Counted from the stretch's first letter, positions 1,584 to 13,695 are shown. The stretch: 13,745 nucleotides of DNA from an uncultured bacterium (GCA_964619725.1 CAZUFC010000181.1:1-13745), one strand, 5' to 3'. The notes: generated from the letters alone by a model not told the origin. A program made the numbers and translations.

Positions 1584-4500
1584 TTACTTTTGGACGGCCA
1601 GCCAGGAAATCGTTTCCGTTGTGTGGGGTCCGTCGCATCCGGGAGTTTCTTCTACTCTAACCATGAAACTATTATTCGTCAGATTTTTGATGTCGACGAC
1701 ACAGGGATCTCCGCCATTTTCAGTGGTAATGGCGGCGTGGAGAACGGGGGTTTCTTTAAACGGCGCGTTGAAGTTCACACGCTTCCAGTTATGACGTACC
1801 GTCGTATTACCCATCTGTGAACCGTTCGGCGGGGAATCCAAGGCTAACCATGAAATAGTTTCGACGCCGTGGACGCCATCGCATTCCGGGGATTCTTCCA
1901 CCCGGACATCGAATCCCAGCGAGGACAAGTTACATATATCAATATGGCATGGTTCATCGTCGTTATTTGTGATGATGGAAGCCTGAAGATTCGGTATACC
2001 GTCTGCCGGAAAGGCAAAATTGACCGTCGTCCAGCGATTATCGGTCTCAACCGTTCCCATCTGCGCACGATCATAAGGAAGGTTAAGCGCTGTCCAGTTG
2101 ATTTCTTCAATCGCATGATAACCGTCAAGACCGCAAGGTTCATCTACTCTCATTTCGAAACCGTCGTATCTTAGATTACGAACGTCGGGAACGCATGTTT
2201 GCCCTCCAGCTTCGGTGATGATGCTCACCAGCAGGTTGGGGATGATCGGGAAAGGCTTCTGAAATTCGATTCTAATCCACCTGTTGTTCGTCGAATCCGA
2301 TCCAAGCCATTCGACTTGTTTTCTTGCCGTATAGAGCTCATAGATTTCTTCAGGCATCAGCGCGCGATCATAGACTCTGACGTCATCAATTATTCCGTTG
2401 AAATAAATTTCATGAGGATTCGTGTGGTCTCTGCCTACCCACAAACTTTGCGTCGGCGGTGTGTAATCTGCGGTTTTGACGCCCACCGAAATTCCGTCCC
2501 TAAAAGCCTGTAATTCAGCGCCGTCGTAAGTCATCGCAACCTGTGTCCATCTGTCGCAGGGGATACTCGCCGTTATAGACTTTGCTCCGCTTTCGCTTCC
2601 CAGGATGTACTTAAAAATGTGATTGGATTGCCAGAACCTCATCACATAACCTTCTGTAAAGTGTCCGTCCCAGCGTGAAGCGCCCATTACGGCATCGCCG
2701 GATTCAGTAGTCGGATGGTGATAAATCCAGGCAACAGCGGTGAACGTTTCCGATTGCAGGCCGGCATCGGCGCCGCAATCGACATAATCGTCGAAACCGT
2801 TGAAACTCAAGCTGCAACCCGCTTCTCGTTCGACCCACCTGCATCCGTAAATTTGACCATTGTTCCAGTGGGAAGCCGCGTCAAAAATCGTATCGCCTTC
2901 GCACTCGTCCATGGGCCAAAAAGCGGTCAGAGATTGCCGTTCGAAGGGGATTCGGGATTGAGCACAAAGCGGTATGTCTCCGCCTGTTCCGAAATACAGG
3001 CGGACTTGATTGCAATCATGCAGGGAAGATCGAGTATAAGCCCAGAGTCCGGTTGAGGGTCTGAAGACAGCAACGTCCGCTTTTGCATCTCCATCGTAGT
3101 CTGCGGGAACAGGAACATCGCCGCCGGCGCCGAAGTATCTTCTTCCATTGGGCAGACAATCCGTGTCTACGTCTTTAGCGGCCCACAGTCCGACCGTCGG
3201 CCTGAAAACGGCTATATCCGTTCTTCCGTTTCCGTCGTAATCCGCCGGGATGGGAATGTCTCCGGCGCGTCCGAAATAATGTCTGATCGTTTCGCATTCG
3301 GCCGATGAAGACTTCATGTAAGCCCAAAGACCGACGTCTGGTCTGAATACGGCCAGGTCCGTCAAGCCGTCCCCGTCATAATCCGCGGGCACGGGTATAT
3401 CGCCGATTTGTCCGAAGTAACGGCTTCCGTCCGGCAAACATTGCGTTTCAAAATTTTTAACAGCCCAAAGCCCGTTCGAGGGGCGAAAAACGGCAATGTC
3501 GGTTATTCCGTCGCCGTTGTAATCTGCGGGGACAGGGATATCGCCGGCGGCCCCGAAGTAGAAGGTATTCTGAAGGCAGCCCGTAGTCGAAGACTGCAAA
3601 TATGACCACATTCCTGATGATGGCCGGAAAACCGCGATATCCGTAACATCATCGCCGTCATAATCTCCAGGTACGGGCATATCGCCCGGAGAGCCGAAGT
3701 ACCGGGAACCGTCCGGCAGGCATTCCGTATCCACATTTTGAACTGCCCACTTCGCTTGAGAGGGACGATATATGACCAAATCGGAATAGCCGTCGCCGTC
3801 GTAATCACCCGAATCTTTGATGATGGACGGCATTGAAAAGGCATCCGATGGATCAGCGCTGTAAAAATATTCGATAAGATTGGAATAGCCGTCGCCGTCC
3901 TGGTCTGCAGCGGAATCGTCGAGCAACGGATTCAATCCGTAACGGACTTCCCAACCGTCCGGCATCAAATCATCGTCCGTGTCAGGGTCCTGGGGATCGG
4001 TGCCGTAAACCCTTTGCTCACGATAATCGCTCAATTCATCGCCGTCCTGATCATACTGCATCCCTACCGTGAGCGTCGGATCGCCCAGCAACGCTTCCTC
4101 GTAAAATGCCCATCGCCTGCCGAAATCAAGATATCCCCCGATCGCGTGATATTCCACCCAGTCGAGAAAAGCTTCTCCCCAGTTCAGTCCCGTTCCCAAT
4201 TTCTGGAACATGTGCTCCGGACTGTAACCTCCTCCGTGACCTGTAATTCCCGACACCAGCAAACCATCGCCCGTGAAAAGATAGGCGCAAGCAATATTAA
4301 CGTTTGTTTCGTTGAAATACTGGCAGTTGCTGCAAGCAAAAAGGCGAAAGAAACGGCAATTATGGTCGCAGGAAAGAACATCTTCCGAATCGAAAATAGT
4401 TGCAGGAAATTTGAAGGAATCGCCTGTATCGCAACGACTGAAAGAGTAGCAATCAAACGCGTTTCCGTCTACACCGCCGTGACATTTCAAATACACGAAT

Positions 4501-5378
4501 TCGTATCCGCTAATCAATTCATCCAGATAATCGTTATCCGTCGGAGATTTCGCTCCATATGTAAGATGAACAAGCCCCTGTTTATGCTCCGCCCTCAAAT
4601 TCACGTTCTCCGGACTGTACATATGTTCCAGTCCCTCATAACTGTCGTCGCAATTCGGCCAATCCCAGTATGAAAGCGCCTGGGGAGGTTCCGGATCGCT
4701 GCCGGTACGATAAGCATGATTTTTCGCGAAATAGTCCGCCAGCAAATCAGCCTGCTCCTGAATATCATCTCCCGCTATATTCCGAGGATATAACCGGCCG
4801 ATCCATATCTCCGGCATAGAACCCTCCTGCCCGGTTCCCTGCTCCTTAAACGAATCATAATAATACAACCCCATTTCCGTCTCCCGGGTCTCACCTGCGT
4901 AATAGTCCCTGAGAAAACCCTGCATATCCGGGTCCTGACACTGATAATTTTGATCATAAGTTTTAAGGTCCTCCCAGTCGCCGTTCAAGTCCATGTAATA
5001 GTAATCCGAACCCGAACGTTTACACCAGTGTCCGCAAGCGCCCTGCATCTGATAAAAAGCCACAGGATAATCGCCTATCAAAAGACAACCGCTAATCGCT
5101 TCCTCCTGCCACATTTCCTGAAGTTCCGCCTTGAGCGCCGGCGGTGATTCAAACTCATTCTCATAAGACAAATACAAAATAACTTCGTAACCCTCATCCT
5201 CCAAATCCTGACAATAACGATCCAATGACTGGGGAACAAGATTGTAGAGAGCATTTTCCGCCATTACCAGGACCGTTTCAGCCGAACAGACAGAAGATGA
5301 AATAAAAATGACGATACATCCCAGAAGTAAACAGAAGAATCTCCTATTTGAAAATTCAGATATTTCGTTGGTTTTCAT
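1584..5378 (-). CDS. Secreted multidomain protein: C25 gingipain-like cysteine peptidase, Ca-binding DxDxDG repeats, 6 FG-GAP/VCBS-like repeats, LamG domain, 3 H-type lectin-like repeats
   Basis: 1264-aa ORF with a signal peptide (RRFFCLLLGCIVIFISSSVCSA). C25-like motifs PEIWIGRL, YLKCHGG (His), LFACSN (Cys), LLGDPTL. DQDGDELSD/DTDDDLMPDGWE/DQDGDGYSN repeats; six repeats of consensus DYDGDGxxDIAVFRPxxGLW; LamG motif FNGIIDDVRVYDRAL; three repeats ending ETISWLA-like. Purine-rich RBS GGAAGGGAAAG. Confidence 0.93.
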   Translation of the reverse strand: MKTNEISEFSNRRFFCLLLGCIVIFISSSVCSAETVLVMAENALYNLVPQSLDRYCQDLEDEGYEVILYLSYENEFESPPALKAELQEMWQEEAISGCLLIGDYPVAFYQMQGACGHWCKRSGSDYYYMDLNGDWEDLKTYDQNYQCQDPDMQGFLRDYYAGETRETEMGLYYYDSFKEQGTGQEGSMPEIWIGRLYPRNIAGDDIQEQADLLADYFAKNHAYRTGSDPEPPQALSYWDWPNCDDSYEGLEHMYSPENVNLRAEHKQGLVHLTYGAKSPTDNDYLDELISGYEFVYLKCHGGVDGNAFDCYSFSRCDTGDSFKFPATIFDSEDVLSCDHNCRFFRLFACSNCQYFNETNVNIACAYLFTGDGLLVSGITGHGGGYSPEHMFQKLGTGLNWGEAFLDWVEYHAIGGYLDFGRRWAFYEEALLGDPTLTVGMQYDQDGDELSDYREQRVYGTDPQDPDTDDDLMPDGWEVRYGLNPLLDDSAADQDGDGYSNLIEYFYSADPSDAFSMPSIIKDSGDYDGDGYSDLVIYRPSQAKWAVQNVDTECLPDGSRYFGSPGDMPVPGDYDGDDVTDIAVFRPSSGMWSYLQSSTTGCLQNTFYFGAAGDIPVPADYNGDGITDIAVFRPSNGLWAVKNFETQCLPDGSRYFGQIGDIPVPADYDGDGLTDLAVFRPDVGLWAYMKSSSAECETIRHYFGRAGDIPIPADYDGNGRTDIAVFRPTVGLWAAKDVDTDCLPNGRRYFGAGGDVPVPADYDGDAKADVAVFRPSTGLWAYTRSSLHDCNQVRLYFGTGGDIPLCAQSRIPFERQSLTAFWPMDECEGDTIFDAASHWNNGQIYGCRWVEREAGCSLSFNGFDDYVDCGADAGLQSETFTAVAWIYHHPTTESGDAVMGASRWDGHFTEGYVMRFWQSNHIFKYILGSESGAKSITASIPCDRWTQVAMTYDGAELQAFRDGISVGVKTADYTPPTQSLWVGRDHTNPHEIYFNGIIDDVRVYDRALMPEEIYELYTARKQVEWLGSDSTNNRWIRIEFQKPFPIIPNLLVSIITEAGGQTCVPDVRNLRYDGFEMRVDEPCGLDGYHAIEEINWTALNLPYDRAQMGTVETDNRWTTVNFAFPADGIPNLQASIITNNDDEPCHIDICNLSSLGFDVRVEESPECDGVHGVETISWLALDSPPNGSQMGNTTVRHNWKRVNFNAPFKETPVLHAAITTENGGDPCVVDIKNLTNNSFMVRVEETPGCDGPHTTETISWLAVQK

Positions 5379-5691: not shown

Positions 5692-5852
5692 GGCATTGAT
5701 CAAAAAAGCCTCTTTTGAGGTTACAATTCGACAGAATCGTCTGTCATTTTGTTTCGATTTCGATCACGATTGCGATACCGATGCCGATACCGATTACTGA
5801 AAAAAACTGTCAAACGTTTTGAAAGAAGTGTAACCACGGATTGATCAGTCCC
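5692..5852 (+). mobile_element. MITE copy 2 (161 bp), 7 internal hexamers
   Basis: TIRs GGCATTGATCAA and TTGATCAGTCCC. Flanks TGCTTTTT (5684-5691) and TGCATTTT (5853-5860) form an 8-bp TSD with one mismatch. Confidence 0.92.
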
Positions 5853-5906: not shown

Positions 5907-6080
5907 ATGAACTGGCTTGAGAAATTAAGAGAACTTCCAACAAACCGCAGAGGGATTCACCATCAACCTGAAACGCCAAGATATGCGAGAGCGCGGCAAA
6001 AATAAATGGTTTTAAAGGGGAAAATCATGGAAACAACTCAGGAACCTTCTGAACCTCATCAATTACAATGCCGCTTTTAA
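5907..6080 (+). pseudogene. Short RBS-preceded ORFs (32 aa at 5907-6005, 17 aa at 6027-6080), possibly a decayed gene-cassette ORF upstream of the attC-like site
   Basis: AGGAGAG before ATG5907 (MNWLEKLRELP...) and AAGGGG before ATG6027. No family recognised. Confidence 0.25.
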
Positions 6081-6186
6081 CATGGCTTCGAAGAATACGA
6101 AGAGGGTCCTCCTCCATAGCTGATCTGTCGTTAAAATTCTCCATGTTGAAATAATCATACTCGGAAAAAGCAGCCAGTAGTAGCGT

Positions 6187-6241
6187 GGGAGTGATCACGA
6201 TAAATGATGTAACCCTGACATGGCCATTTTTGATCAGTGTC
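6187..6241 (-). mobile_element. Possible internally deleted MITE remnant (55 bp)
   Basis: GGGAGTGATCAC and TTGATCAGTGTC each match a MITE TIR at 10/12. The TGTAACC-N16-TGATCA spacing is identical to copy 1. No TSD. Confidence 0.45.
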
Positions 6242-6297: not shown

Positions 6298-6386
6298 GTT
6301 GAACCAATGGATGAACGGGACGGCGAAAACGCTAAACCAGAAGCCGACGTGACTTCGTCGACGCCTGTTATCCTAAGCCGTTAGGC
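6298..6386 (+). mobile_element. Solo integron attC-like recombination site (89 bp)
   Basis: R'' GTTGAAC (6298-6304), 5-nt spacer, L'' GATGAACG (6310-6317), L' TGTTATC (6366-6372), 7-nt spacer, R' GTTAGGC (6380-6386). GGATGAACGGGACG pairs with CGCCTGTTATCC leaving two unpaired bases at the usual extrahelical positions. GGAG and ATG (6405) follow immediately, as in a cassette start. Confidence 0.7.
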
Positions 6387-6506: not shown

Positions 6507-7739
6507 CTAAGCGGAGAATATGGTCAGAAGGAGTTCGGCATCATCAATGAGCCGGTAAACCGGTTTCCTGTTGGAAAGCTTTTCGCTTTCTTTTAAGATG
6601 ATCGGAACGCCGTCTCCTCTTTTTTCCATATAAAATTTTCGTAAGACGACTCCTGAATATTCCGGAAGTGGCGTTTCAGCCAGCAGGCTTGTAATCAGTT
6701 CATTTCTTGTGGCTTGTCGGAGGGCTATATTATCCACAGTTACGGTATTGGGGAGAGAACCGGGCGAATACAATTCAAGGCGATCGTCAAAGATGAAGAA
6801 GCGTATTTTGGAGGCGTAAATGGAATAATCGCGGTGGGCGACGGCATTGACGATAGCCTCAAAGACGGCTCTTTCGCTGAACTGCCTGGATTCAACACGA
6901 TGAGGAGCTTTGACTGCTTTCACGGTCTGGTTTCTTTTAAGAAAAGAGATGGCCTGGTCTATCTGTCGATTCAGCGGACCCCGTATTTTTTGAGCGTCTG
7001 TCTGATAATTAGAATCCTGTCTTATTCCACGATATCGTACCGCCTCGATATAGGCGTTGGGCATAAAATCTTCCGGCTGCTCGCAGCACAGAAGTATTCC
7101 GGCGACTGAAGCCCTGATGGTTCCGTTTTGTTCTTTCGCCAGTAGGTTGCGTTTAAGAAGTACAGTTTTTTCCGGTTCGTCAGATCGAGTCGTATAGTTA
7201 GTCCATAGTTGCTCGGACAGATCGTTAATGCCGGATTCCGGGACCGTTTGTTCATCAAACCTGATGAGTCGGGCCTGACTTTTCTGCTGTCCGAGTCTGA
7301 GGAGATAATCCGTCTGCATTTCTCTTTTCGAGCTGCCCTGCCGATAAAAATATCCTCCAGGACTTTTGTGGACGAAAAGACTGCGTGGAATTTCTATAAC
7401 CATCACCGGCCTTAATAAGCCTTCAGCATCAGGCAACTCCATCCTGAAAGACCTGAAGCGGACCGGGGGTTTTATGCTGTCGTTGCATATTTCAAAAATA
7501 AATTTTTCAACAATGTCCAGACGGTCGACAGGAATACCTGTTATATCCCCTGTTTTATCATCTACACCAAGAACGAGGGCGCCGTCGTAAGTATTCGCTA
7601 TGGCAGCTATTTCATCCGCCAACTTATCGCGATGCGGTCCATAAACTTTATTTCCCCTGAATTGGATATTTTTGAGTTCAATTTGAGTATCCTCACCGAG
7701 CCTTATCTTTTTTAGCAATTCTTGAGAACTGTCAAACAT
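6507..7739 (-). CDS. Schlafen/AlbA_2-domain protein with HATPase_c_4 (RecG-C-like) domain
   Basis: 410 aa. GEDTQIELK (ExxxxExK) and AIANTYDGALVLGVDD are AlbA_2/Schlafen motifs; EAIVNAVAHRDY, DDRLELYSPG, RNELI and EKRGDGV are HATPase_c_4-type motifs. RBS GGAGGGG lies inside the upstream gene, with an 8-bp overlap. Confidence 0.93.
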   Translation of the reverse strand: MFDSSQELLKKIRLGEDTQIELKNIQFRGNKVYGPHRDKLADEIAAIANTYDGALVLGVDDKTGDITGIPVDRLDIVEKFIFEICNDSIKPPVRFRSFRMELPDAEGLLRPVMVIEIPRSLFVHKSPGGYFYRQGSSKREMQTDYLLRLGQQKSQARLIRFDEQTVPESGINDLSEQLWTNYTTRSDEPEKTVLLKRNLLAKEQNGTIRASVAGILLCCEQPEDFMPNAYIEAVRYRGIRQDSNYQTDAQKIRGPLNRQIDQAISFLKRNQTVKAVKAPHRVESRQFSERAVFEAIVNAVAHRDYSIYASKIRFFIFDDRLELYSPGSLPNTVTVDNIALRQATRNELITSLLAETPLPEYSGVVLRKFYMEKRGDGVPIILKESEKLSNRKPVYRLIDDAELLLTIFSA

Positions 7740-10518
7740 TTATCCCCTCCAACGCAATTCTCCGATAGCGCTCTTCAAAAGCTTTACGCCCTCCTTCCAT
7801 AACGGCACAGATGACCTCTCTGACACTTTTTTCCTGCAGGCTTCCTTCACATTCTTTATGAGTTTCTCCGCCGCCTGGTTTAAGGCCGATTACGAATTCA
7901 GCATCTCCGTTAACAACTATATTCGCGTTGTGCGTCACGACTATAACCTGACGGCGCCGTTTAATGTCTCGTAATTGCGTCACGATTAGATCATAGATCA
8001 AATGATTGTCCAGATCATCTTCCGGTTGATCAAGAATCAATGGTTCTTCTCCATAGGAAAGCAAAAAAGCGAGCAATGCAGCAGTCTTTTGTCCCGGTGA
8101 ACCTTCCTGGATCGAGCGGAATTTTTTCCCATCGGCGGTTGTGCTGTACCGAATTTCAAGAGAATCTTCGGGGAACCAGAGTTCAATGCGATCCAGAGTT
8201 TCAGGAGTCAATTTTTTTAAATGGGCGACAAAACGCTTATCGGATAAAAACTCATTATCATCGTTTGAATCCATTGTGATTTTTTTTACCCTGTTTTTTA
8301 TTTTCTTTACGTTTCTTTCAATAGCCTGATCGTTACCCTCAGCGTTTTTTTTATCAACACCTCTGTATAGTTCACCGAGAAGCCCATGCCCCTCAATTGA
8401 TCCAATGTCTTTTTCAAATGCGCCGTCTTCCCGATTAATTAACCGGCTGAATTCATTTTCAGATGATTCCCTTGCACCGTAAGGAACGATTGTTATACTG
8501 ACATAGTGGTTATCGCGCAGTACTTCATTCAAGAATTTCCGGCGTTTTATTGTAATATCCCGGCGTAGAGCCGTCAGTCGTTCAATATGTTCATCTGCTT
8601 GTCCGCTTAATTCCTCGACCTGCTTTTTTCGTTCCTTCAGTTCGATCATCTTTTGCTCTATGTTCTGCCGCCTTTGAACAAGCTCTCCATATACCGCCGG
8701 GTCTCCAACGCCTGCTTCCGATAATTTCTCCACCAGTTTTTGATATGCCTTTTCCGCATCTACAACACTTTTTTTCCATTTTGACTCATTCCTCGTTTTC
8801 TTCCATTCTTCATTTATTGCATCAATTTCGGCAGCTAAATTCAAAACCTTTTTACTGATTTCTTCTATTTTTTTTGCTGTCTTTTCGGCGTTGCCCAGCA
8901 TCTTTGTTTCTTCTTCAGAGTTTAAATCAAAATCATTTTCTTCAAGGTTGTCAGGAACAATTTCGGAAGCAATGTTCCGTAACTGCTCTCCAATATCGCT
9001 CCAACTTTCTTCCCACAATTCTACTTTCCGATTTTGGCGTTTTCTCTTCTGGTAATTTTTAAGTATTTCAGCGTGACCGTCTTTTTCAAAGACTTCCATT
9101 TTTCTTTTGATATCGTCGAGTTCTCCTTGCAAGCGCTGTTTATTGGGCAGTGCACTTTCTATTTCTCTGGCTTTGGCGCGTAGTGAAAGGAACCGGGCTT
9201 TTTCGGCATTCCATTTTTCTTCCCAGGAACGTCGATCAACTTCCGGAGCGTCATCAACGACTTTGAGTAAAGCCAACGGAGCTTTAGCGAGCTGGAATAT
9301 TTGTTTCTGACTATAGATTCTTAAAGGGAAACGCTGTTTTATATCCCCTTCTGCTTTGGTCCATCGGTTATTCTTCATCTGTTCTATCGGTTCCATTGTG
9401 CCGGCTGGATTCCATTGAATTCTGAAGCGCGCTCCATTCTTACGATAGATTACTCGAATAGCCGTATTCCTCCTCATGAGTCCACTGTCATTTCGATTCG
9501 TATAGATGTTTTCGTATTTTTCGAAATCTTCCTTCAGTTCGTCAGGCAATTCATTTCTTCGTCGAAGCGCTATACGAAGGAATTCAACAACAGTGGATTT
9601 CCCCGTTCCTCTACCCCCAATAATAGCGTTCAGCCAGGGATTAAATTTTATTGAAAAGGTTTCTGAGCGGCCAATATATTGTGCTTCAGAAATATCGATA
9701 GATTCTATAACTTCAGGACCATGAGCATTAGGATCGTCTTCGGTCTCATCAGAGCGTCGGATGGATAGAGGACCGTCAAGGAGAGCCAGCCGAAGACCTT
9801 CTATACATGGCTTACTCATCTTGATCCATGTAAAATGACTGCCTGGAAAGCGTTGACCGACAGAACCGGAAGGATGATGAGAATCCGATCCTAAAATTTG
9901 AGTCCAATGCTTTTTTTTATCAACGTACAATTGCGGCATTTGGAAATTTTTATCCATAAGTTCCATAGCGAATATGTTGTCGCAATCTAATGCCTGCTGC
10001 AAGGTTCCTCCTTTTAAGGACAACAGTCCATTATTCTCATCAACATGCGCAGGAATCACTATGCCGCCGACTGATACGACGGCTTCAACGACTTCTGCAA
10101 ATGCTTTACAGGTAACGGTATCGCTATTACCCTTCTTTCCTTCGTATTCTACTTTGCCGAGCAGTTGATCTATGTCTGAAGAGCTTTTTGAAGGATCGAA
10201 AATAGCCAGGACATGGATGCCTCCGTTAACCGTGATCTCTGTTCCCGGAAAGAGATACAGCTCCCGATATTCTTCCGGTTTTTCTGTTGTTAAATCTGAA
10301 AGCGCTTCCTTCAGTATATCTATCCAGGCTCCGCTGTTGTGGTCGGTGATCGACACGCAATCAATACCCGCTTTCATATAATCAAGCAGCCACTCTTTTG
10401 GCGAACGCGTTTTCAGTATTTCACGATTCTGTCCTTTTCCATAATCATCCGATGCGGGAGCATGAGCGTGCAGGTCGAATTTCCACCAGCGCGCTCCTTT
10501 CCAATTCCAATTCGTCAT
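7732..10518 (-). CDS. ppl: PHP phosphoesterase fused to an SMC-like ABC ATPase (TrlF family / Ppl-type anti-phage protein), 928 aa
   Basis: PHP motifs DLHAH, ITDHN, GTEIT, IPAHVD, GSDSH; Walker A GGRGTGKST; Q-loop IYSQ; long coiled coil; signature GSPGQK; Walker B/D-loop LILDQPEDDLD; H-loop VVTHN. Start moved from 10638 to ATG 10518 (MTNWNWKGARWWK), which is preceded by AAGGGGAG. Confidence 0.9.
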   Translation of the reverse strand: MTNWNWKGARWWKFDLHAHAPASDDYGKGQNREILKTRSPKEWLLDYMKAGIDCVSITDHNSGAWIDILKEALSDLTTEKPEEYRELYLFPGTEITVNGGIHVLAIFDPSKSSSDIDQLLGKVEYEGKKGNSDTVTCKAFAEVVEAVVSVGGIVIPAHVDENNGLLSLKGGTLQQALDCDNIFAMELMDKNFQMPQLYVDKKKHWTQILGSDSHHPSGSVGQRFPGSHFTWIKMSKPCIEGLRLALLDGPLSIRRSDETEDDPNAHGPEVIESIDISEAQYIGRSETFSIKFNPWLNAIIGGRGTGKSTVVEFLRIALRRRNELPDELKEDFEKYENIYTNRNDSGLMRRNTAIRVIYRKNGARFRIQWNPAGTMEPIEQMKNNRWTKAEGDIKQRFPLRIYSQKQIFQLAKAPLALLKVVDDAPEVDRRSWEEKWNAEKARFLSLRAKAREIESALPNKQRLQGELDDIKRKMEVFEKDGHAEILKNYQKRKRQNRKVELWEESWSDIGEQLRNIASEIVPDNLEENDFDLNSEEETKMLGNAEKTAKKIEEISKKVLNLAAEIDAINEEWKKTRNESKWKKSVVDAEKAYQKLVEKLSEAGVGDPAVYGELVQRRQNIEQKMIELKERKKQVEELSGQADEHIERLTALRRDITIKRRKFLNEVLRDNHYVSITIVPYGARESSENEFSRLINREDGAFEKDIGSIEGHGLLGELYRGVDKKNAEGNDQAIERNVKKIKNRVKKITMDSNDDNEFLSDKRFVAHLKKLTPETLDRIELWFPEDSLEIRYSTTADGKKFRSIQEGSPGQKTAALLAFLLSYGEEPLILDQPEDDLDNHLIYDLIVTQLRDIKRRRQVIVVTHNANIVVNGDAEFVIGLKPGGGETHKECEGSLQEKSVREVICAVMEGGRKAFEERYRRIALEGINV

Positions 10519-10719
10519 AATTCTTCTCCCCTTAAGCCCGGCATTTGTAAAAAAATCGAATAACTTTTGGATTTTTCCCGATGATCTTTCTGAGATATGC
10601 AAATGTTTTTTTTCCGATCCGATCATTTCCATGTTCAAAAATCTGAAAATGCATTTTAACCTTCATCGTGCTGATAACATCTTGACGCTTCTATCCGCGA
10701 GAACAGAATAACCGCTTAT

Positions 10720-10748
10720 TTTATAAAGGTTAAAAGAGAATTTGTCAA
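10720..10748 (-). promoter_or_regulatory. Sigma70-type promoter for the ppl-Schlafen operon
   Basis: Minus strand reads TTGACA (10748-10743), 17 nt, TATAAA (10725-10720), about 200 bp upstream of ATG 10518. Confidence 0.7.
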
Positions 10749-10792
10749 TCAAAGATACCGGCAACGCTTTTCTGATCCTAATGAAAAAAATC

Positions 10793-10952
10793 GGCATTGA
10801 TCAAACGTGCGTCTTTTGAGGTAACAATTCGACAGAATATCTCATCATTACGTTTCGATTTCGATCCCGACTGCAATACCGACCCCGATACCGATTACTG
10901 AAAAAACTGTCAAACGTTTTGAAAGAAGTGTAACCACGGTTTGATCAGTCCC
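10793..10952 (+). mobile_element. MITE copy 3 (160 bp), 7 internal hexamers
   Basis: TIRs GGCATTGATCAA and TTGATCAGTCCC, with a perfect 8-bp TSD AAAAAATC at 10785-10792 and 10953-10960. Confidence 0.93.
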
Positions 10953-11264
10953 AAAAAATCGATAAATATTCCGATTCTCTGTTTCTCCCCCACGATCTTA
11001 ATTACAATAAATTATTCTACGTCCCGAAGATACTCACCGTCCGTTCTTTTCCGGGGTCATTAGCGACCTTTCGAGGATAGAAACCTCCCAAAAAGCCGTT
11101 TAATTTTTCATCACCCTTCCGAACCGTCATTGCATTTCAAGAGGCATCGTACACGTTTTCGGGTGTAAAATGGCATTTTTTTGATTTCCTTTTTCCGTTC
11201 ATACTGATGCTTTCCTGGTTCCGTATTACCTTCTTTTATGATTTGACGATGATACCGGCAGCTC

Positions 11265-11305
11265 TTCCGAGACGGTATGGAAATTGCTATCATTATATCG
11301 GAGGT
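11265..11305 (+). promoter_or_regulatory. Possible extended -10 promoter and strong Shine-Dalgarno for the propeller gene
   Basis: TGcTATCAT at 11285-11293, weak -35 TTCCGA 17 nt upstream, GGAGGT at 11300-11305, 6 nt before ATG 11312. Confidence 0.35.
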
Positions 11306-11311
11306 GTTTTT

Positions 11312-13588
11312 ATGGGTAGAACACTGGCGATGAATTATTGTCGGAGATGGAAAGGGATTTTTTATCGATACCGGCATTTCAGCGTTTTGAGAATGGATGT
11401 ACGGATTTTAATAATCCTTTATTTTTCATTTCTGTTTACTTTTTCCATTGCCGAATGCAGCGATTACAGCATAACCAACTGGACTAACGGCAATGCCCTG
11501 GTTGATTTCGTAGAAGCTGATGACGGTTTCTGGGCGGTTACTACCGGCGGGCTTGTTCGTTGGACTTTGCCGGAATTGAGTTATGTCAAATATACAACGG
11601 CGGACGGATTGGGTGACAACTGGTTCAAGAATGGTACGGCGGATTCTTCCGGGAATTTCTGGTTCGGTTCTGTATTCGGGGGTTTGATGAAGTATGACGG
11701 GACTGAGTGGGAGGTCATCACTGAGGAGGACGGCATTCCTTATAATGAGATAACGGCATTGGCCGTAGACTCTTCTGATCGTTTATGGGCGGGATTCGGA
11801 GCGGCATTCGGGAACGGTCTGGGCATACTGGAAAACGGCGAATGGTTCTATATCACCCGGAATGAGGGGTTGACTCATAATTATATTACGTGCATCGCCA
11901 TGGACTCAGCAGGCGCCTGGGTCGGGACACGCGGAGGCATCAACCGTATCGAAAATGACATCGTGGTTTCAGGATTCACCGAAGATAACGGTCTGCCGCC
12001 GGCGCGGGTCAGCTCTATTGCAGCGGACGATGCGGGTAATGTCTGGATAGGGACTGAATGCGGACTCAGTTTTTTCAACGGATGGTATTTTACCAATTAT
12101 TACATGGAGGACGGACTTCCCTCGGACAGGATCAACGATCTTTTGATTCGTGATGACGGGGCTTTGTTGATCGGCACATCCAACGGACTGGCCATATGGA
12201 ACCAGGATGAACGGTGCATTCTTGGACCTGCCGAGGGAATAAGCGGCAGGAACGTCAAGGCGCTTTATGCACTTGATTCTGACCTTATCTTGTGCGGGGT
12301 ATATAATCGGGGGATCGACCTGCTTGAGGACAGTTCAATCACCGGTCACATCAGGACGAATGACTGGCTGCCGGGGAATGAGATTCGGGGGCTTGCGTTT
12401 GAAGGCGATAAACTGTGGTACGCTACTTTTGAAGGCGGCGTCGGTTGGTACGACCGGCGGGCTCATACGCATGCCGCTTACTTTTCAGAACCGGGACTGG
12501 AAGGGACCCAGGTGCGGTGCCTGGCGATCGATCACGGCGGATTGAAATGGTTCGGGACTTTCGGCGACGGCGTTTACAGTTTCAATGATTCCGCGTGGCG
12601 TCATTATACCGTGGAAAACAGCGGCTTACCGGACGATAAAGTGCTGGGTATTTTCATCGATGACGACGGCAGCCGGTGGTTTGCTACGTTCGGCGGCGGG
12701 ATATGCCGTTATGACGGGTCTGACTGGGACATTATCGATGAATCGGACGGTTTGCCGATTAACCTGACTTACAACGTCACGAAAGACCTGGAAGGCTGTT
12801 ACTGGTTCTGCACCGACCTGGGCGTCACCCGTTACGACGGTGAAAACCTGGTGTCCTATTATGAAGAAGATGGCCTTATTTTTCACCGGGTCTATGAGGC
12901 TTCCGTTGATGCCGGCGACATCAAATGGTTCGGGGCTTGCAAAGGACTTTCGCTTTTTGACGGCGAAACTTTCACCAATTACACCGTCGATGACGGACTG
13001 GTTCATTACAGGGTGCGGGACATTATCTTTGATGAGGACGATAAAGCGTGGCTGGCGACGGGCGGCGGCGCGAACGTTTTTGATGGGGTAAATTTTGAGT
13101 CTATCACCACCGAAGACGGACTGGCAGGGTTTGAAACTTATGCCGTCGTTCACGGTACGGATGGGGCTCGCTGGTTCGGCTCACGCGGCGGCATATCAGT
13201 CGTCAGACCTGCCGGCGATCCCTGTCCCGCGACCGGAGTCACTCTTTCCATGCCTTCCCTGATATATCGTCCCGGCGATACCTGCTCCTGTTCGGTCGCC
13301 CTCTGCAATGCCGAAGGAACCTATCTTGAAGGGTATCCCCTGTTCGTGCTGCTGGAGATTTACGGGGATTATTATTTCGGACCCGATTTTACCTCTGAAT
13401 TTGATACTTACCTCGACCTTTATGCCGGTTTTACCGAAGGGGAAACGCCGGTTACCGTTATTGACCCCTTCGCCTGGCCTTATGATGCCGGGGCAGGCTC
13501 CGCTTCCTGGTTCGCCGGCCTGGCCGATCCTTCCATGTCGGTGGTTTTGGGGGATATTGACGTTTTCAGCTTTGTTTGGCTGGAGTGA
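11312..13588 (+). CDS. Exported beta-propeller repeat protein (two-component regulator propeller, Reg_prop-like) with a distinct ~120-aa C-terminal domain
   Basis: Many repeats of the type T..DGL..N.I..I..D..G..WFGT..G. Hydrophobic segment VRILIILYFSFLFTFSIAEC; no Y_Y_Y, TM or histidine-kinase module. Start chosen at ATG 11312 (GGAGGT RBS); ATG 11393 is an alternative and 11207 is the longest-ORF start. Confidence 0.88.
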   Translation: MGRTLAMNYCRRWKGIFYRYRHFSVLRMDVRILIILYFSFLFTFSIAECSDYSITNWTNGNALVDFVEADDGFWAVTTGGLVRWTLPELSYVKYTTADGLGDNWFKNGTADSSGNFWFGSVFGGLMKYDGTEWEVITEEDGIPYNEITALAVDSSDRLWAGFGAAFGNGLGILENGEWFYITRNEGLTHNYITCIAMDSAGAWVGTRGGINRIENDIVVSGFTEDNGLPPARVSSIAADDAGNVWIGTECGLSFFNGWYFTNYYMEDGLPSDRINDLLIRDDGALLIGTSNGLAIWNQDERCILGPAEGISGRNVKALYALDSDLILCGVYNRGIDLLEDSSITGHIRTNDWLPGNEIRGLAFEGDKLWYATFEGGVGWYDRRAHTHAAYFSEPGLEGTQVRCLAIDHGGLKWFGTFGDGVYSFNDSAWRHYTVENSGLPDDKVLGIFIDDDGSRWFATFGGGICRYDGSDWDIIDESDGLPINLTYNVTKDLEGCYWFCTDLGVTRYDGENLVSYYEEDGLIFHRVYEASVDAGDIKWFGACKGLSLFDGETFTNYTVDDGLVHYRVRDIIFDEDDKAWLATGGGANVFDGVNFESITTEDGLAGFETYAVVHGTDGARWFGSRGGISVVRPAGDPCPATGVTLSMPSLIYRPGDTCSCSVALCNAEGTYLEGYPLFVLLEIYGDYYFGPDFTSEFDTYLDLYAGFTEGETPVTVIDPFAWPYDAGAGSASWFAGLADPSMSVVLGDIDVFSFVWLE

Positions 13589-13695
13589 TTTGTCTGGGTT
13601 GGTTTTTTTCTGGTTTTTGGTTGTTGGTTTTTGGTTTTTGGTTTTTTTTATGTTTGAGTTGGTTTTTTTTCCGCTTTTTTTTGGGGTTTATTGTG
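13589..13695. repeat. Low-complexity T/G-rich tract (TTGGTTTTT-like units)
   Basis: Almost only T and G immediately after the stop codon, close to the window end. Confidence 0.6.

Follow-up and report, generated by a model that had tools for sequence, protein, structure and literature searches.

PrrC, which occurs with EcoprrI, and RloC are anticodon nucleases linked to ABC-type ATPases within type I restriction loci; in both, a single polypeptide combines the ATPase with an anticodon nuclease of a type other than Schlafen. Ppl is a single-gene anti-phage protein of E. coli, reportedly named by Gao et al. in 2020, and its mechanism is said to have been studied by Xu et al. in Mol Cell in 2026. 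According to two papers, Ppl is a single-stranded DNA 3′-5′ exonuclease that is inhibited by NTPs and triggered by 3′-OH ends (PMC12904381), and it is toxic without RecBCD (PMC13648713). For prokaryotic Schlafen proteins, PMC13056530 describes a pattern of a Schlafen effector plus a variable sensor; in the E. coli tests in its section 6, two Schlafen-histidine-kinase fusions were not among the two protective systems, and one of the eight chosen constructs, which one being unstated, failed synthesis. A preprint (10.64898/2026.05.29.728809) reports that ATP-driven tetramerisation of an SLFN-GHKL protein builds the active tRNase, reports tRNA cleavage and ATP-dependent oligomerisation for RzAgo, and describes Schlafen-GHKL proteins as mostly small and stand-alone. 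Schlafen-minimal histidine kinase RNases are termed "backup suicidal effectors" of BREX in PMC12839542.

The closest described system is the temperature restriction locus (TRL), the operon trlR-trlF-trlG of Photorhabdus laumondii (Hapeshi et al. 2020, PMC7554251), for which conservation across genera was reported. In Photorhabdus, transcription of the operon is temperature-induced, trlG is required for the growth arrest seen at 36 °C, and all lesions of heat-tolerant mutants are found in trlG and none in trlF, which is more than twice as long as trlG (PMC7554251). From Table 1 and the text of that paper, we counted 16 distinct lesions in trlG and 0 in trlF. Phage defence is not considered in that study.

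We analysed a 13,745-nt stretch of DNA from an uncultured bacterium (the window), in which two minus-strand genes, at 7732-10518 and 6507-7739, overlap by 8 nt. The locus is a copy of the widespread, already named two-gene trlF–trlG operon of the TRL family; the operon family itself is known, and what is new is the window locus as a further member. As judged from its sequence, the pair is a Ppl-like DNA nuclease/ATPase joined to a Schlafen-type RNase. Its genes and domains are as follows.

7732..10518, minus strand: trlF, a 928-aa TrlF/Ppl-family protein (NCBIfam, PADLOC, motifs, AF2, Foldseek)
9724-10518, minus strand: TrlF PHP nuclease domain, residues 1-265
9244-9717, minus strand: TrlF ABC ATPase N-lobe, residues 268-425
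8518-9234, minus strand: TrlF helical coiled-coil insert, residues 429-667
7759-8511, minus strand: TrlF ATPase C-lobe, residues 670-920
6507..7739, minus strand: trlG, a 410-aa Schlafen(AlbA_2)-GHKL protein ("Schlatpase"; Pfam, motifs, AF2, Foldseek)
7317-7694, minus strand: TrlG Pfam SLFN_AlbA_2, residues 16-141
6546-6812, minus strand: TrlG Pfam HATPase_c_4, residues 310-398

The window and the TRL operon hold the same pair in the same order with the same domains, a "histidinol phosphatase"/PHP-ATPase (TrlF) followed by TrlG with AlbA_2 and HATPase_c_4. The window TrlF scores 644 bits against the NCBIfam model TrlF_fam_ATP (NF045780), above the family cut-off of 350 bits and over profile positions 1-943 of 944, and the AlbA_2 + HATPase_c_4 gene lies directly downstream with the 8-nt overlap. 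The pairing, which the sequence-only reading did not know as a named system, is therefore trlF-trlG of TRL (PMC7554251). The window differs in that no small ORF resembling the regulator gene trlR (79 aa in Photorhabdus) was found upstream: the search of 10519-11206 returned only unconvincing ORFs of 25-44 aa and an 88-aa ORF overlapping the neighbouring gene. The window TrlG is approximately 28-30% identical to TrlG-like genes of enterobacterial and Pseudomonas plasmids, the reference being these plasmid genes and not Photorhabdus TrlG, and it falls in a different TrlG clade from the plasmid row compared (IncC plasmid).

The catalytic motifs of both proteins are intact. The best homologues of TrlF, 920-922 aa in length, align over 100% of its 928 residues, and Pfam matches to AAA_23 and AAA_21 were obtained. 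Among 33 aligned TrlF-family members, the PHP ligands H17, H19, D59, H60, E94, H102, H158, D212, and H214 are invariant, as are Walker A (G301-S308), Q404, signature S807, Walker B (D830-E833), and H863, which bears out the earlier claim of a PHP + SMC-like ABC-ATPase with complete motifs. The AF2 model (pLDDT 87.3) retrieved JetC, SMC, RecN, and Rad50 heads together with EndoQ and PHP phosphoesterases in Foldseek. With Ppl, TrlF shares the architecture of PHP plus Rad50-like ABC ATPase, all PHP and ATPase motifs, and a full-length match to the PADLOC Ppl model (PDLC02208; E 1.6e-156, with residues 8-921 aligned to positions 4-892 of the 894-position profile). It differs in that records annotated as "anti-phage protein Ppl" are only ~29% identical to it, that its 620 bits lie below the NCBIfam Ppl_antiphage equivalog cut-off of 1000, a score reached by 0 of the 28 other family members tested, and that a trlG-like neighbour is missing beside a Ppl annotated on an E. 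coli plasmid, whereas the window trlF is coupled to trlG. The label "Ppl-type" given to the gene earlier thus holds for the full-length PADLOC match but not for the equivalog cut-off, the identity, or the solitary state of Ppl.

TrlG shares with prokaryotic Schlafens and Schlatpases the Ex4(E/D)xK motif (E16, E21, K23) and a Schlafen C-lobe-like fold followed by a GHKL domain (PF13749) with the E/N Mg-ATP ligands. Both the Ex4ExK residues and the N-box residues E294/N298 are invariant among 30 aligned TrlG proteins. The AF2 model (pLDDT 85) matched 3lmm over its full length, the nuclease domains of SLFN14/13/11/5/12, and GHKL kinases (PDK/HK853), and TrlG matched the N-terminal part of the PADLOC Schlafen-pAgo model. 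Instead of a fused sensor (pAgo core, Ig-like, or DUF262), TrlG has a separate, coupled gene, trlF; the words Ppl, PHP, and TrlG are absent from the main text of PMC13056530. As in PrrC and RloC systems, an RNA-cutting suicide effector would be combined here with an ABC-type NTPase, and relatives of the pair lie inside hsd operons, but the window has two separate genes, its nuclease domain is of the Schlafen type, and its ATPase protein bears a DNA nuclease of its own; no sequence relation of trlFG to PrrC/RloC was found. A PARIS (AriA/AriB) or OLD-type assignment was rejected: the matches to the AriA, GajA, PtuA, and LmuB HMMs are partial, spanning the P-loop or the C-lobe with E values of 4e-8 at best, and the locus has no TOPRIM protein that could correspond to the AriB effector. 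Schlafen-minimal histidine kinase RNases are also closely linked to BREX, and trlFG follows PglX, PglXI, or HmaB in 5 related loci; the Schlafens of PMC12839542 are described with a wHTH while none was found by Pfam in the window TrlG, and PHP, Ppl, and TrlF are absent from the main text of that paper.

The two genes share a tight junction, listed here with the predicted signals and repeats around them.

10790..10952, unstranded: copy of a dispersed repeat, ~160 nt, directly upstream of the predicted promoter
10720..10748, minus strand: predicted sigma-70-like promoter TTGACA-17-TATAAA, ~200 nt ahead of the trlF start
10526..10533, minus strand: trlF ribosome-binding site AAGGGGAG (sequence reading), 7 nt before the ATG at 10518
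7744-7750, minus strand: trlG ribosome-binding site GGAGGGG, within trlF and just upstream of the overlap
7732..7739, minus strand: 8-nt trlF/trlG overlap ATGTTTGA, with the trlG start codon inside the trlF stop region
6343..6362, minus strand: weak terminator-like hairpin, ~145 nt past the trlG stop (consensus scan alone)
5692..5852, unstranded: second copy of the dispersed repeat in direct orientation, ~650 nt downstream of trlG

The longest trlF ORF spans 7732-10638 from a TTG; the start is likely the ATG at 10518-10516, which gives 928 aa. Both the near-consensus promoter and the 8-bp overlap with the second ribosome-binding site inside the first gene, as claimed in the sequence-only reading, can be read in the sequence. 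The window has one copy of the exact promoter string, where shuffled sequence would give 0.01; the pattern was picked post hoc. The general promoter scan, which demands T as the final base of the second hexamer, omits this site; it gave 9 promoter-like sites in the window against 11.0 ± 3.6 expected, and thus no excess, and the consensus scan for terminator-like sites likewise showed no excess (9 against 6.5 ± 2.6). The ~160-nt repeat occurs genome-wide and does not mark this cassette in particular.

Among 25 related full pairs, the junction is an 8-nt overlap in 11, a gap of 1-2 nt in 13, and a gap of 18 nt in one, so that 24 of the 25 are tight, and this tightness is maintained across 36-64% TrlF identity. 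We sampled 66 metagenome loci retrieved through the TrlF-family alignment: trlG lies directly downstream on the same strand in 29, is absent within at least 1250 nt in 19, and was not assessable in 18. The TrlF clade of the window (SH-aLRT 99) has nine rows, seven paired and two not assessable. The identities of TrlF and TrlG co-vary (Mantel r 0.897, 24 pairs; none of 2000 permutations reached this value), and rare TrlF-TrlG fusion ORFs occur (P0396 and P0398). These data indicate that trlF and trlG are a conserved unit, translationally coupled by the look of its junctions, and not chance neighbours, as had been claimed: 29 paired against 19 unpaired loci, a conserved junction, and a Mantel r of 0.90 all speak for it.

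Of the 48 assessable loci, 19 have TrlF but no TrlG, the tree requires at least 8-10 changes between the two states, and among plasmids 484 records have a TrlF-like gene versus 52 with a TrlG-like gene. Because so many TrlF lineages and plasmid records lack TrlG, TrlG is dispensable for TrlF. The short-form TrlG, which lacks a built-in sensor domain, forms a clade of 33 rows, of which 32 are paired and one is a truncated copy 319 nt from trlF; the 19 rows of the sister clade have no TrlF and carry a C-terminal extension of ~175 aa instead. Paired rows were mostly retrieved via TrlF, so the constant presence of this TrlG beside TrlF rests on few unbiased cases. When we searched from TrlG (24 places, E ≤ 1e-80), 3 of 22 assessable close relatives were paired and the other 19 were of the long form.

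Related pairs often stand among defence genes. On an IncC plasmid, the gene order is hsdR-trlF-trlG-hsdS-AAA-hsdM; in five loci (L042, L047, L013, L002, and L044), a PglX, PglXI, or HmaB methylase ends no more than 20 nt from trlF; and further genes of restriction-modification or known defence type lie beside L016, L023, L031, L058, L065, and L069. The placement of related pairs directly behind BREX, Hma, or restriction-modification methylases supports a probable role in defence. In the literature searched, no experiment ties any trlFG pair to phage resistance, and Pfam annotation of the neighbours within the window gave no defence genes flanking it.

On balance, we think it probable that trlF–trlG here is a two-layer anti-phage module. 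TrlF, a PHP nuclease joined in one protein to an SMC/Rad50-like ABC ATPase that bears a coiled-coil insert, would sense DNA 3′-OH ends and nucleotide state and degrade invading DNA, by homology to E. coli Ppl. TrlG would be an ATP-dependent, oligomerising tRNase that halts growth, by homology to SLFN-pAgo and other prokaryotic Schlafens. With both genes presumably on a single transcript and their translation coupled, TrlF would be the first line, acting on DNA, and TrlG a latent back-up acting on RNA under TrlF control, restrained by TrlF until TrlF is engaged or blocked; we prefer such restraint to a requirement of TrlF for the activation of TrlG. A shared single cue is unlikely because the activation of SLFN-GHKL needs ATP while Ppl is released by loss of NTP. 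Family membership, intact motifs, folds, conservation of adjacency and junction, co-variation, and defence neighbourhoods were observed here; the Ppl mechanism, the tRNase activity of Schlafen-GHKL proteins, and the trlG-dependent growth arrest come from the literature. The role of the pair in defence, a physical contact between TrlF and TrlG, and the direction of control are inferred.

A positive form of control, in which the ATPase and coiled coil of TrlF sense DNA ends or a phage cue and then bind and activate an otherwise inert TrlG, would parallel the division into sensor and effector in PARIS, Lamassu, PrrC, or RloC. It would account for a sensor-less short-form TrlG whose sister clades without TrlF have C-terminal extensions in cis, and for the conserved adjacency and co-variation; paired lineages also conserve TrlF slightly better than solo ones do, chiefly in the coiled coil, which is a weak signal. 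The effector-plus-variable-sensor pattern of PMC13056530 fits as well. This reading is nevertheless rather unlikely in view of the 16 heat-tolerance lesions in Photorhabdus trlG and 0 in the longer trlF (PMC7554251): heat-tolerant mutants have no trlF lesions, and therefore TrlF is unnecessary for TrlG-dependent arrest, at least when heat-induced. The sequence-only reading had the ATPase control the Schlafen RNase; taken as a switching-on of the RNase, this is unsupported as stated, and the Photorhabdus lesions argue against TrlF as an obligatory activator. What survives of its interpretation as a whole is the coupled unit and the defence contexts of related pairs, but not the unnamed pairing.

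The same genetics (PMC7554251) would be compatible with two independent defence genes in one operon that make no contact and are linked for co-transfer and co-expression only, TrlF acting on DNA like solo Ppl and TrlG working by itself as a Schlafen-GHKL tRNase that answers to a separate trigger. TrlF family members do function or persist alone in many lineages, and Schlafen-GHKL proteins are mostly stand-alone according to the preprint (10.64898/2026.05.29.728809). We regard such independence as quite improbable, given a junction that stays tight over 36-64% TrlF identity, the short-form TrlG adjoining TrlF in 33 of 33 rows (mostly retrieved via TrlF), the extra domains gained by TrlG sister clades without TrlF, and the existence of fusion ORFs. 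Very improbable is a role outside defence, with the operon a brake on growth that responds to stress or temperature (the proposal made for Photorhabdus) or TrlG chiefly a DNA-binding regulator. For it speak the sole phenotype from experiment, in which both the growth arrest and the induction of transcription depend on temperature (PMC7554251), the frequent annotation of homologues as "predicted HTH transcriptional regulator" or "putative DNA binding domain-containing protein", and the lack of defence genes beside the pair in the window. Against it, Pfam finds no HTH in the 410-aa TrlG, its nuclease motif is invariant, related pairs lie inside BREX, Hma, or restriction-modification operons and are carried by conjugative plasmids, and the distribution of the pair over phyla, archaea included, is patchy and at high identity, as in mobile defence genes; arrest is also the expected outcome of a misfiring abortive-infection effector.

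A more tentative proposal for the family may or may not hold: TRL would be a widespread two-nuclease anti-phage system, often located in BREX or restriction-modification loci. TrlF, a Ppl-like exonuclease that senses DNA ends and NTPs, would be connected in trans to TrlG, a Schlafen-GHKL tRNase lacking a sensor, and TrlG would fire as an abortive back-up when TrlF is engaged or disabled. If this is true, the temperature restriction that stops some Photorhabdus from growing at 36-37 °C would be a case of phage-defence autoimmunity.

The two overlapping genes on the minus strand of the window, trlF (a PHP protein with an SMC/Rad50-like ABC ATPase) and trlG (a Schlafen AlbA_2 protein with a GHKL domain), are a further member of a known trlF-trlG operon family. 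The sequence-only reading knew of no name for the pairing, but it already bears one as the TRL operon trlR-trlF-trlG, the 'temperature restriction locus' of Photorhabdus laumondii (Hapeshi et al. 2020, PMC7554251). According to that paper, TrlG consists of AlbA_2 and HATPase_c_4, TrlF is termed a 'histidinol phosphatase', and the lesions of mutants that grow at 36 °C map to trlG. From the same text, we count 16 different trlG lesions and none in the larger trlF. Deletion of the operon leads to equal heat tolerance, transcription rises upon a temperature up-shift, and the authors describe the operon as conserved across genera; they do not take up phage defence. The Photorhabdus TRL includes trlR, whereas no convincing trlR-like ORF was found upstream of trlF in the window. 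In our literature searches, the 2020 study was the only relevant match for TrlF or TrlG, and nothing was found for Schlafen and phage combined with Ppl, the single-gene anti-phage PHP-ATPase. The trlF-trlG pair and its conservation have been in print since 2020, and the mechanisms of the parts are known (2026).

The two genes and their junction lie as follows.

7732–10638, minus strand: longest ORF of trlF, with a TTG start
10518, minus strand: ATG, the likely start of trlF, with AAGGGGAG seven bases upstream; product of 928 aa
6507–7739, minus strand: trlG, 410 aa, with its ATG inside the 3' end of trlF
7732–7739, minus strand: trlF/trlG overlap, eight common bases ATGTTTGA, with GGAGGGG just upstream
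10720–10748, minus strand: promoter-like TTGACA-17-TATAAA

The best TrlF homologues are 920–922 aa long, and 100% of the 928-aa query is covered. The overlap with an internal ribosome-binding site and the promoter, both claimed in the sequence-only reading, can be read in the sequence at these positions. The exact promoter pattern occurs once in the window versus 0.01 expected, an expectation that is post hoc because the pattern was picked after being seen, and a general scan of the window gave no excess of promoter-like sites.

The label 'Ppl-type' given to TrlF is only partly borne out. The PADLOC Ppl model matches the protein end to end (E 1.6e-156), but the NCBIfam equivalog 'anti-phage protein Ppl' is failed with 620 bits against a cut-off of 1000, and plasmid records annotated as such are ~29% identical to it. 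The window protein passes the NCBIfam 'TrlF family AAA-like ATPase' (644 bits, cut-off 350), shares 38–49% identity with 'TrlF family' plasmid records, and one of its homologues carries the annotation 'TrlF family'. All 28 family members tested score above the TrlF cut-off and none above the Ppl cut-off, from which we conclude that validated Ppl is a narrow branch of a broad TrlF family. An annotated ppl gene of an E. coli IncF plasmid lies beside no Schlafen gene, whereas the window trlF overlaps trlG; among plasmid TrlF-family genes, some stand alone and some with trlG. According to a review (PMC12904381), E. coli Ppl degrades ssDNA as a 3'-5' exonuclease; NTPs keep it inactive, and NTP depletion together with 3'-OH ends from phage homing endonucleases triggers it. 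Loss of RecBCD makes it toxic (PMC13648713).

The PHP metal-ligand and ATPase motifs claimed for TrlF are all in place. Across 33 aligned and diverse members of the family, the PHP ligands H17, H19, D59, H60, E94, H102, H158, D212, and H214 are invariant, as are the Walker A, Q-loop, signature serine, Walker B, and H-loop. Pfam AAA_23 and AAA_21 match the protein, and its AlphaFold model (pLDDT 87.3) falls into four parts.

Residues 1–265: PHP domain
Residues 268–425: ATPase N-lobe
Residues 429–667: long helical insert
Residues 670–920: ATPase C-lobe

In Foldseek searches, the ATPase resembles JetC and the heads of SMC, RecN, MukB, and Rad50, and the N-terminus resembles EndoQ and PHP phosphoesterases; a sequence search of the PDB found no Ppl structure.

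TrlG comprises SLFN_AlbA_2 (residues 16–141) and HATPase_c_4 (residues 310–398), with no HTH detected by Pfam. An alignment of 30 relatives shows no variation at E16, E21, and K23, which form the Ex4ExK motif given as catalytic in PMC13056530, or at E294/N298 and H302–Y305 of the GHKL N-box. The structure model (pLDDT 85) matches 3lmm, an uncharacterised structure, along its entire length. It also matches the nuclease domains of SLFN14, 13, 11, 5, and 12, the tRNase domain of SAMD9, and GHKL kinases. TrlG-like genes in the phage collection, from Gordonia and Mycobacterium phages and faecal contigs, are distant (at most 29% identical).

The homologue lists gave a first hint of linkage, as many ATPase and Schlafen matches agree in the length of their longest contig, in records from Acidobacteria, Gemmatimonadota, Latescibacteria, and, in one case, even Methanosarcinaceae. 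A single-protein scan of genome contigs had given only one locus. We fetched loci from metagenome contigs by using an alignment restricted to the ATPase family and then looked for the Schlafen gene, which yielded 591 matched stretches encoding relatives and 66 distinct loci. The frequency of adjacency, which the sequence-only reading had proposed to measure, is as follows: trlG lies directly downstream on the same strand in 29 of the 66, including two cut by the contig end and one truncated copy at a distance of 319 nt. Another 19 lack trlG over a downstream stretch of at least 1250 nt, and 18 are not judgeable.

Paired loci (trlG directly downstream) and solo loci (no trlG) by identity to the window TrlF
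50% or more: 9 paired, 2 solo
40–50%: 5 paired, 5 solo
Under 40%: 15 paired, 12 solo

The junction is tight, with an 8-nt overlap in 11 of the 25 complete pairs, a gap of 1–2 nt in 13, and a gap of 18 nt in one. On a 53-row TrlF tree, the paired state changed at least 10 times, 8 of these changes being forced by well-supported branches; the 9-row clade of the window contains 7 paired rows and 2 of unknown state. Pairwise identities of TrlF and TrlG co-vary (r = 0.897 over 24 pairs; none of 2000 permutations as high), and thus the pair has travelled as a unit. Downstream of 20 solo trlF loci, no trlG remnant was found at E < 0.1; the sole match in this search, at locus L041, is another HATPase_c_4 gene lying upstream. 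Neighbours of solo trlF encode a type I S subunit, SNF2 helicases, methylases, a Fic protein, and mobilisation functions. Comparison of paired with solo TrlF gave a weak excess of conservation in the coiled coil, which we do not count as interface evidence. One genome carries two different trlF-trlG pairs (L081 and L082), with TrlGs 72% and 30% identical to the window TrlG, and at another locus, trlG is followed ~360 nt downstream by a second Schlafen + HATPase_c_4 gene (L039:2574-3923), which is divergent.

When 401 genomes of another phylum were searched from the TrlG side, 24 places reached E ≤ 1e-80. Three hold short forms with trlF upstream, 19 hold a long form of 576–607 aa, whose C-terminal extension is unannotated and which has no trlF within 1.5 kb of it, and two are not judgeable (one at a contig end, one without a returned locus). 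On a 64-row TrlG tree, all 33 rows of the short-form clade lie beside trlF, an association whose strictness is partly built in because most paired rows were fetched through TrlF. The 19-row long-form clade is its sister, and another clade of 6 rows, which is divergent and contains the gene of an IncC plasmid, is entirely paired. The long forms (L085–L103, 19 genomes; e.g., L086:1492-3237) are 45–49% identical to the window TrlG; their extra ~175 C-terminal residues showed no likeness to TrlF by BLASTP. Among 17 longer TrlG relatives, two are ORFs fusing TrlF parts to TrlG, and others carry unrelated C-terminal domains of ~500 aa. The first fusion, P0396 (985 aa, in a cluster of 32 sequences), joins TrlF residues ~386–911 to a complete TrlG-like sequence; the second, P0398 (1181 aa), does so with TrlF residues ~5–681. 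They may be natural fusions, deletions, or artefacts of assembly or gene calling. Short TrlG is accompanied by TrlF in trans, and relatives lacking TrlF bear additional domains in cis; this pattern suggests that TrlG requires a function provided by TrlF.

The surroundings of the pair were examined at 30 paired loci with 79 flanking ORFs, of which 20 picked proteins were compared with PADLOC. RM-type or known defence-type genes flank 11 of the 30, many flanks being short. The upstream gene ends within 20 nt of trlF on the same strand at five loci, encoding BREX PglX (L042, L047), PglXI (L013, L002), or HmaB (L044), and at L016 HmaB lies 144 nt upstream. Other flanks carry DUF499 and DUF3780 (L065), a type III methylase directly after trlG (L023), a type I R subunit (L031), a GmrSD-type nuclease (L058), or PD-Lambda-3_B (L069). 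At L042, L047, L013, L002, L044, L016, and L065, trlFG directly follows the BREX PglX or PglXI, Hma HmaB, or DUF499/DUF3780 genes on the same strand, and stop and start often overlap. In these loci, the pair resembles an accessory to defence operons based on methylation. On the IncC plasmid pNDM102337, the order is hsdR-trlF-trlG-hsdS-AAA-hsdM. A BREX survey (PMC12839542) terms Schlafen-minimal-kinase RNases 'backup suicidal effectors' of BREX loci; the words PHP, Ppl, and TrlF are absent from its main text. In the literature searched, which included the main texts of PMC13056530 and PMC12839542, no paper presents trlF-trlG, or Ppl with Schlafen, as one anti-phage system.

The window pair stands alone with its own promoter-like sequence. 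The other features of the window are listed below.

1584–5378, minus strand: gene of 1264 aa with FG-GAP repeats, Laminin_G_3, and a weak H-type lectin match below the Pfam cut-off
11207–13588, plus strand: gene of 793 aa with Reg_prop repeats
6025–6198, minus strand: 57-aa ORF ending '...GIVIDEVQKVPELFP', within the 650 nt that follow trlG and are otherwise non-coding
809–1007 (inverted), 5692–5852 and 10790–10952 (direct): three copies of a dispersed repeat of ~160 nt, bracketing trlFG
275–324 and 1208–1257: two 50-nt copies of a GCGGAC-rich repeat, 84% alike and 933 nt apart, around the first dispersed-repeat copy
13577–13693: T/G-rich imperfect overlapping repeats, TGGTTTTTGG-like, at the end of the 793-aa gene and beyond

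No PADLOC model matched the 1264-aa or 793-aa neighbour. The 57-aa ORF could be the beginning of a gene for an AAA-type ATPase, possibly a remnant. The window is an entire 13.7-kb contig of a 9.17-Mb bin in 344 contigs, from a small phylum with 14 genomes in the collection. The sequencing runs listed comprise four DNA runs of one microbial-mat study, one of which may be its source, and no RNA run. The dispersed repeat, which combines a TTGACAG box with runs of ATCGGT/ATCGCA-like hexamers, gives 627 BLASTN HSPs (388 of at least 100 nt) on 180 of the 344 contigs. Because it is genome-wide, we rejected the flanking direct copies as specific evidence for mobility of the cassette. The repeat may be MITE-like, REP-like, or regulatory; no Rfam family reached its gathering score anywhere in the window, the repeat included.

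How the two proteins might work together is suggested by published mechanisms combined with the linkage data and the Photorhabdus phenotype. According to a preprint (10.64898/2026.05.29.728809), the SLFN-GHKL module needs ATP for activity and assembles into an active tRNase, its defence needs both nuclease and ATPase residues, and most 'Schlatpases' are small proteins without a sensor. We propose that TrlF would be the DNA-level arm and the controller, and TrlG a latent, growth-arresting tRNase; TrlF would restrain TrlG, with back-up firing once TrlF is engaged or blocked. We lean towards this restraint over two alternatives. If TrlF had no effect on TrlG, trlF lesions would likewise be missing among the Photorhabdus mutants, a pattern that restraint fits too. 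If TrlF were instead a sensor needed to switch TrlG on, the dependence of short-form TrlG on the presence of TrlF would be explained, as it would be by restraint; however, because 16 trlG lesions stand against none in trlF, the mutants argue that TrlF is not an obligatory activator. A shared cue of NTP depletion for both proteins was set aside, since SLFN-GHKL needs ATP and Ppl is released by NTP loss.

The defence role of trlFG and temperature restriction as autoimmunity are testable hypotheses. If the two genes form a defence pair, PADLOC would call 'Ppl' only and leave the Schlafen gene unmarked, so that labelling would be incomplete. If true, the pair would represent a natural case in which an SMC-like DNA-end sensor controls a Schlafen tRNase in trans, joining DNA-level and tRNA-level immunity in one operon, and the temperature restriction of Photorhabdus, a published host-range trait, would be misfiring immunity. 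Schlafen-GHKL is the commonest prokaryotic Schlafen architecture and has no known trigger; with a genetically defined partner, the way it is triggered could be tested.
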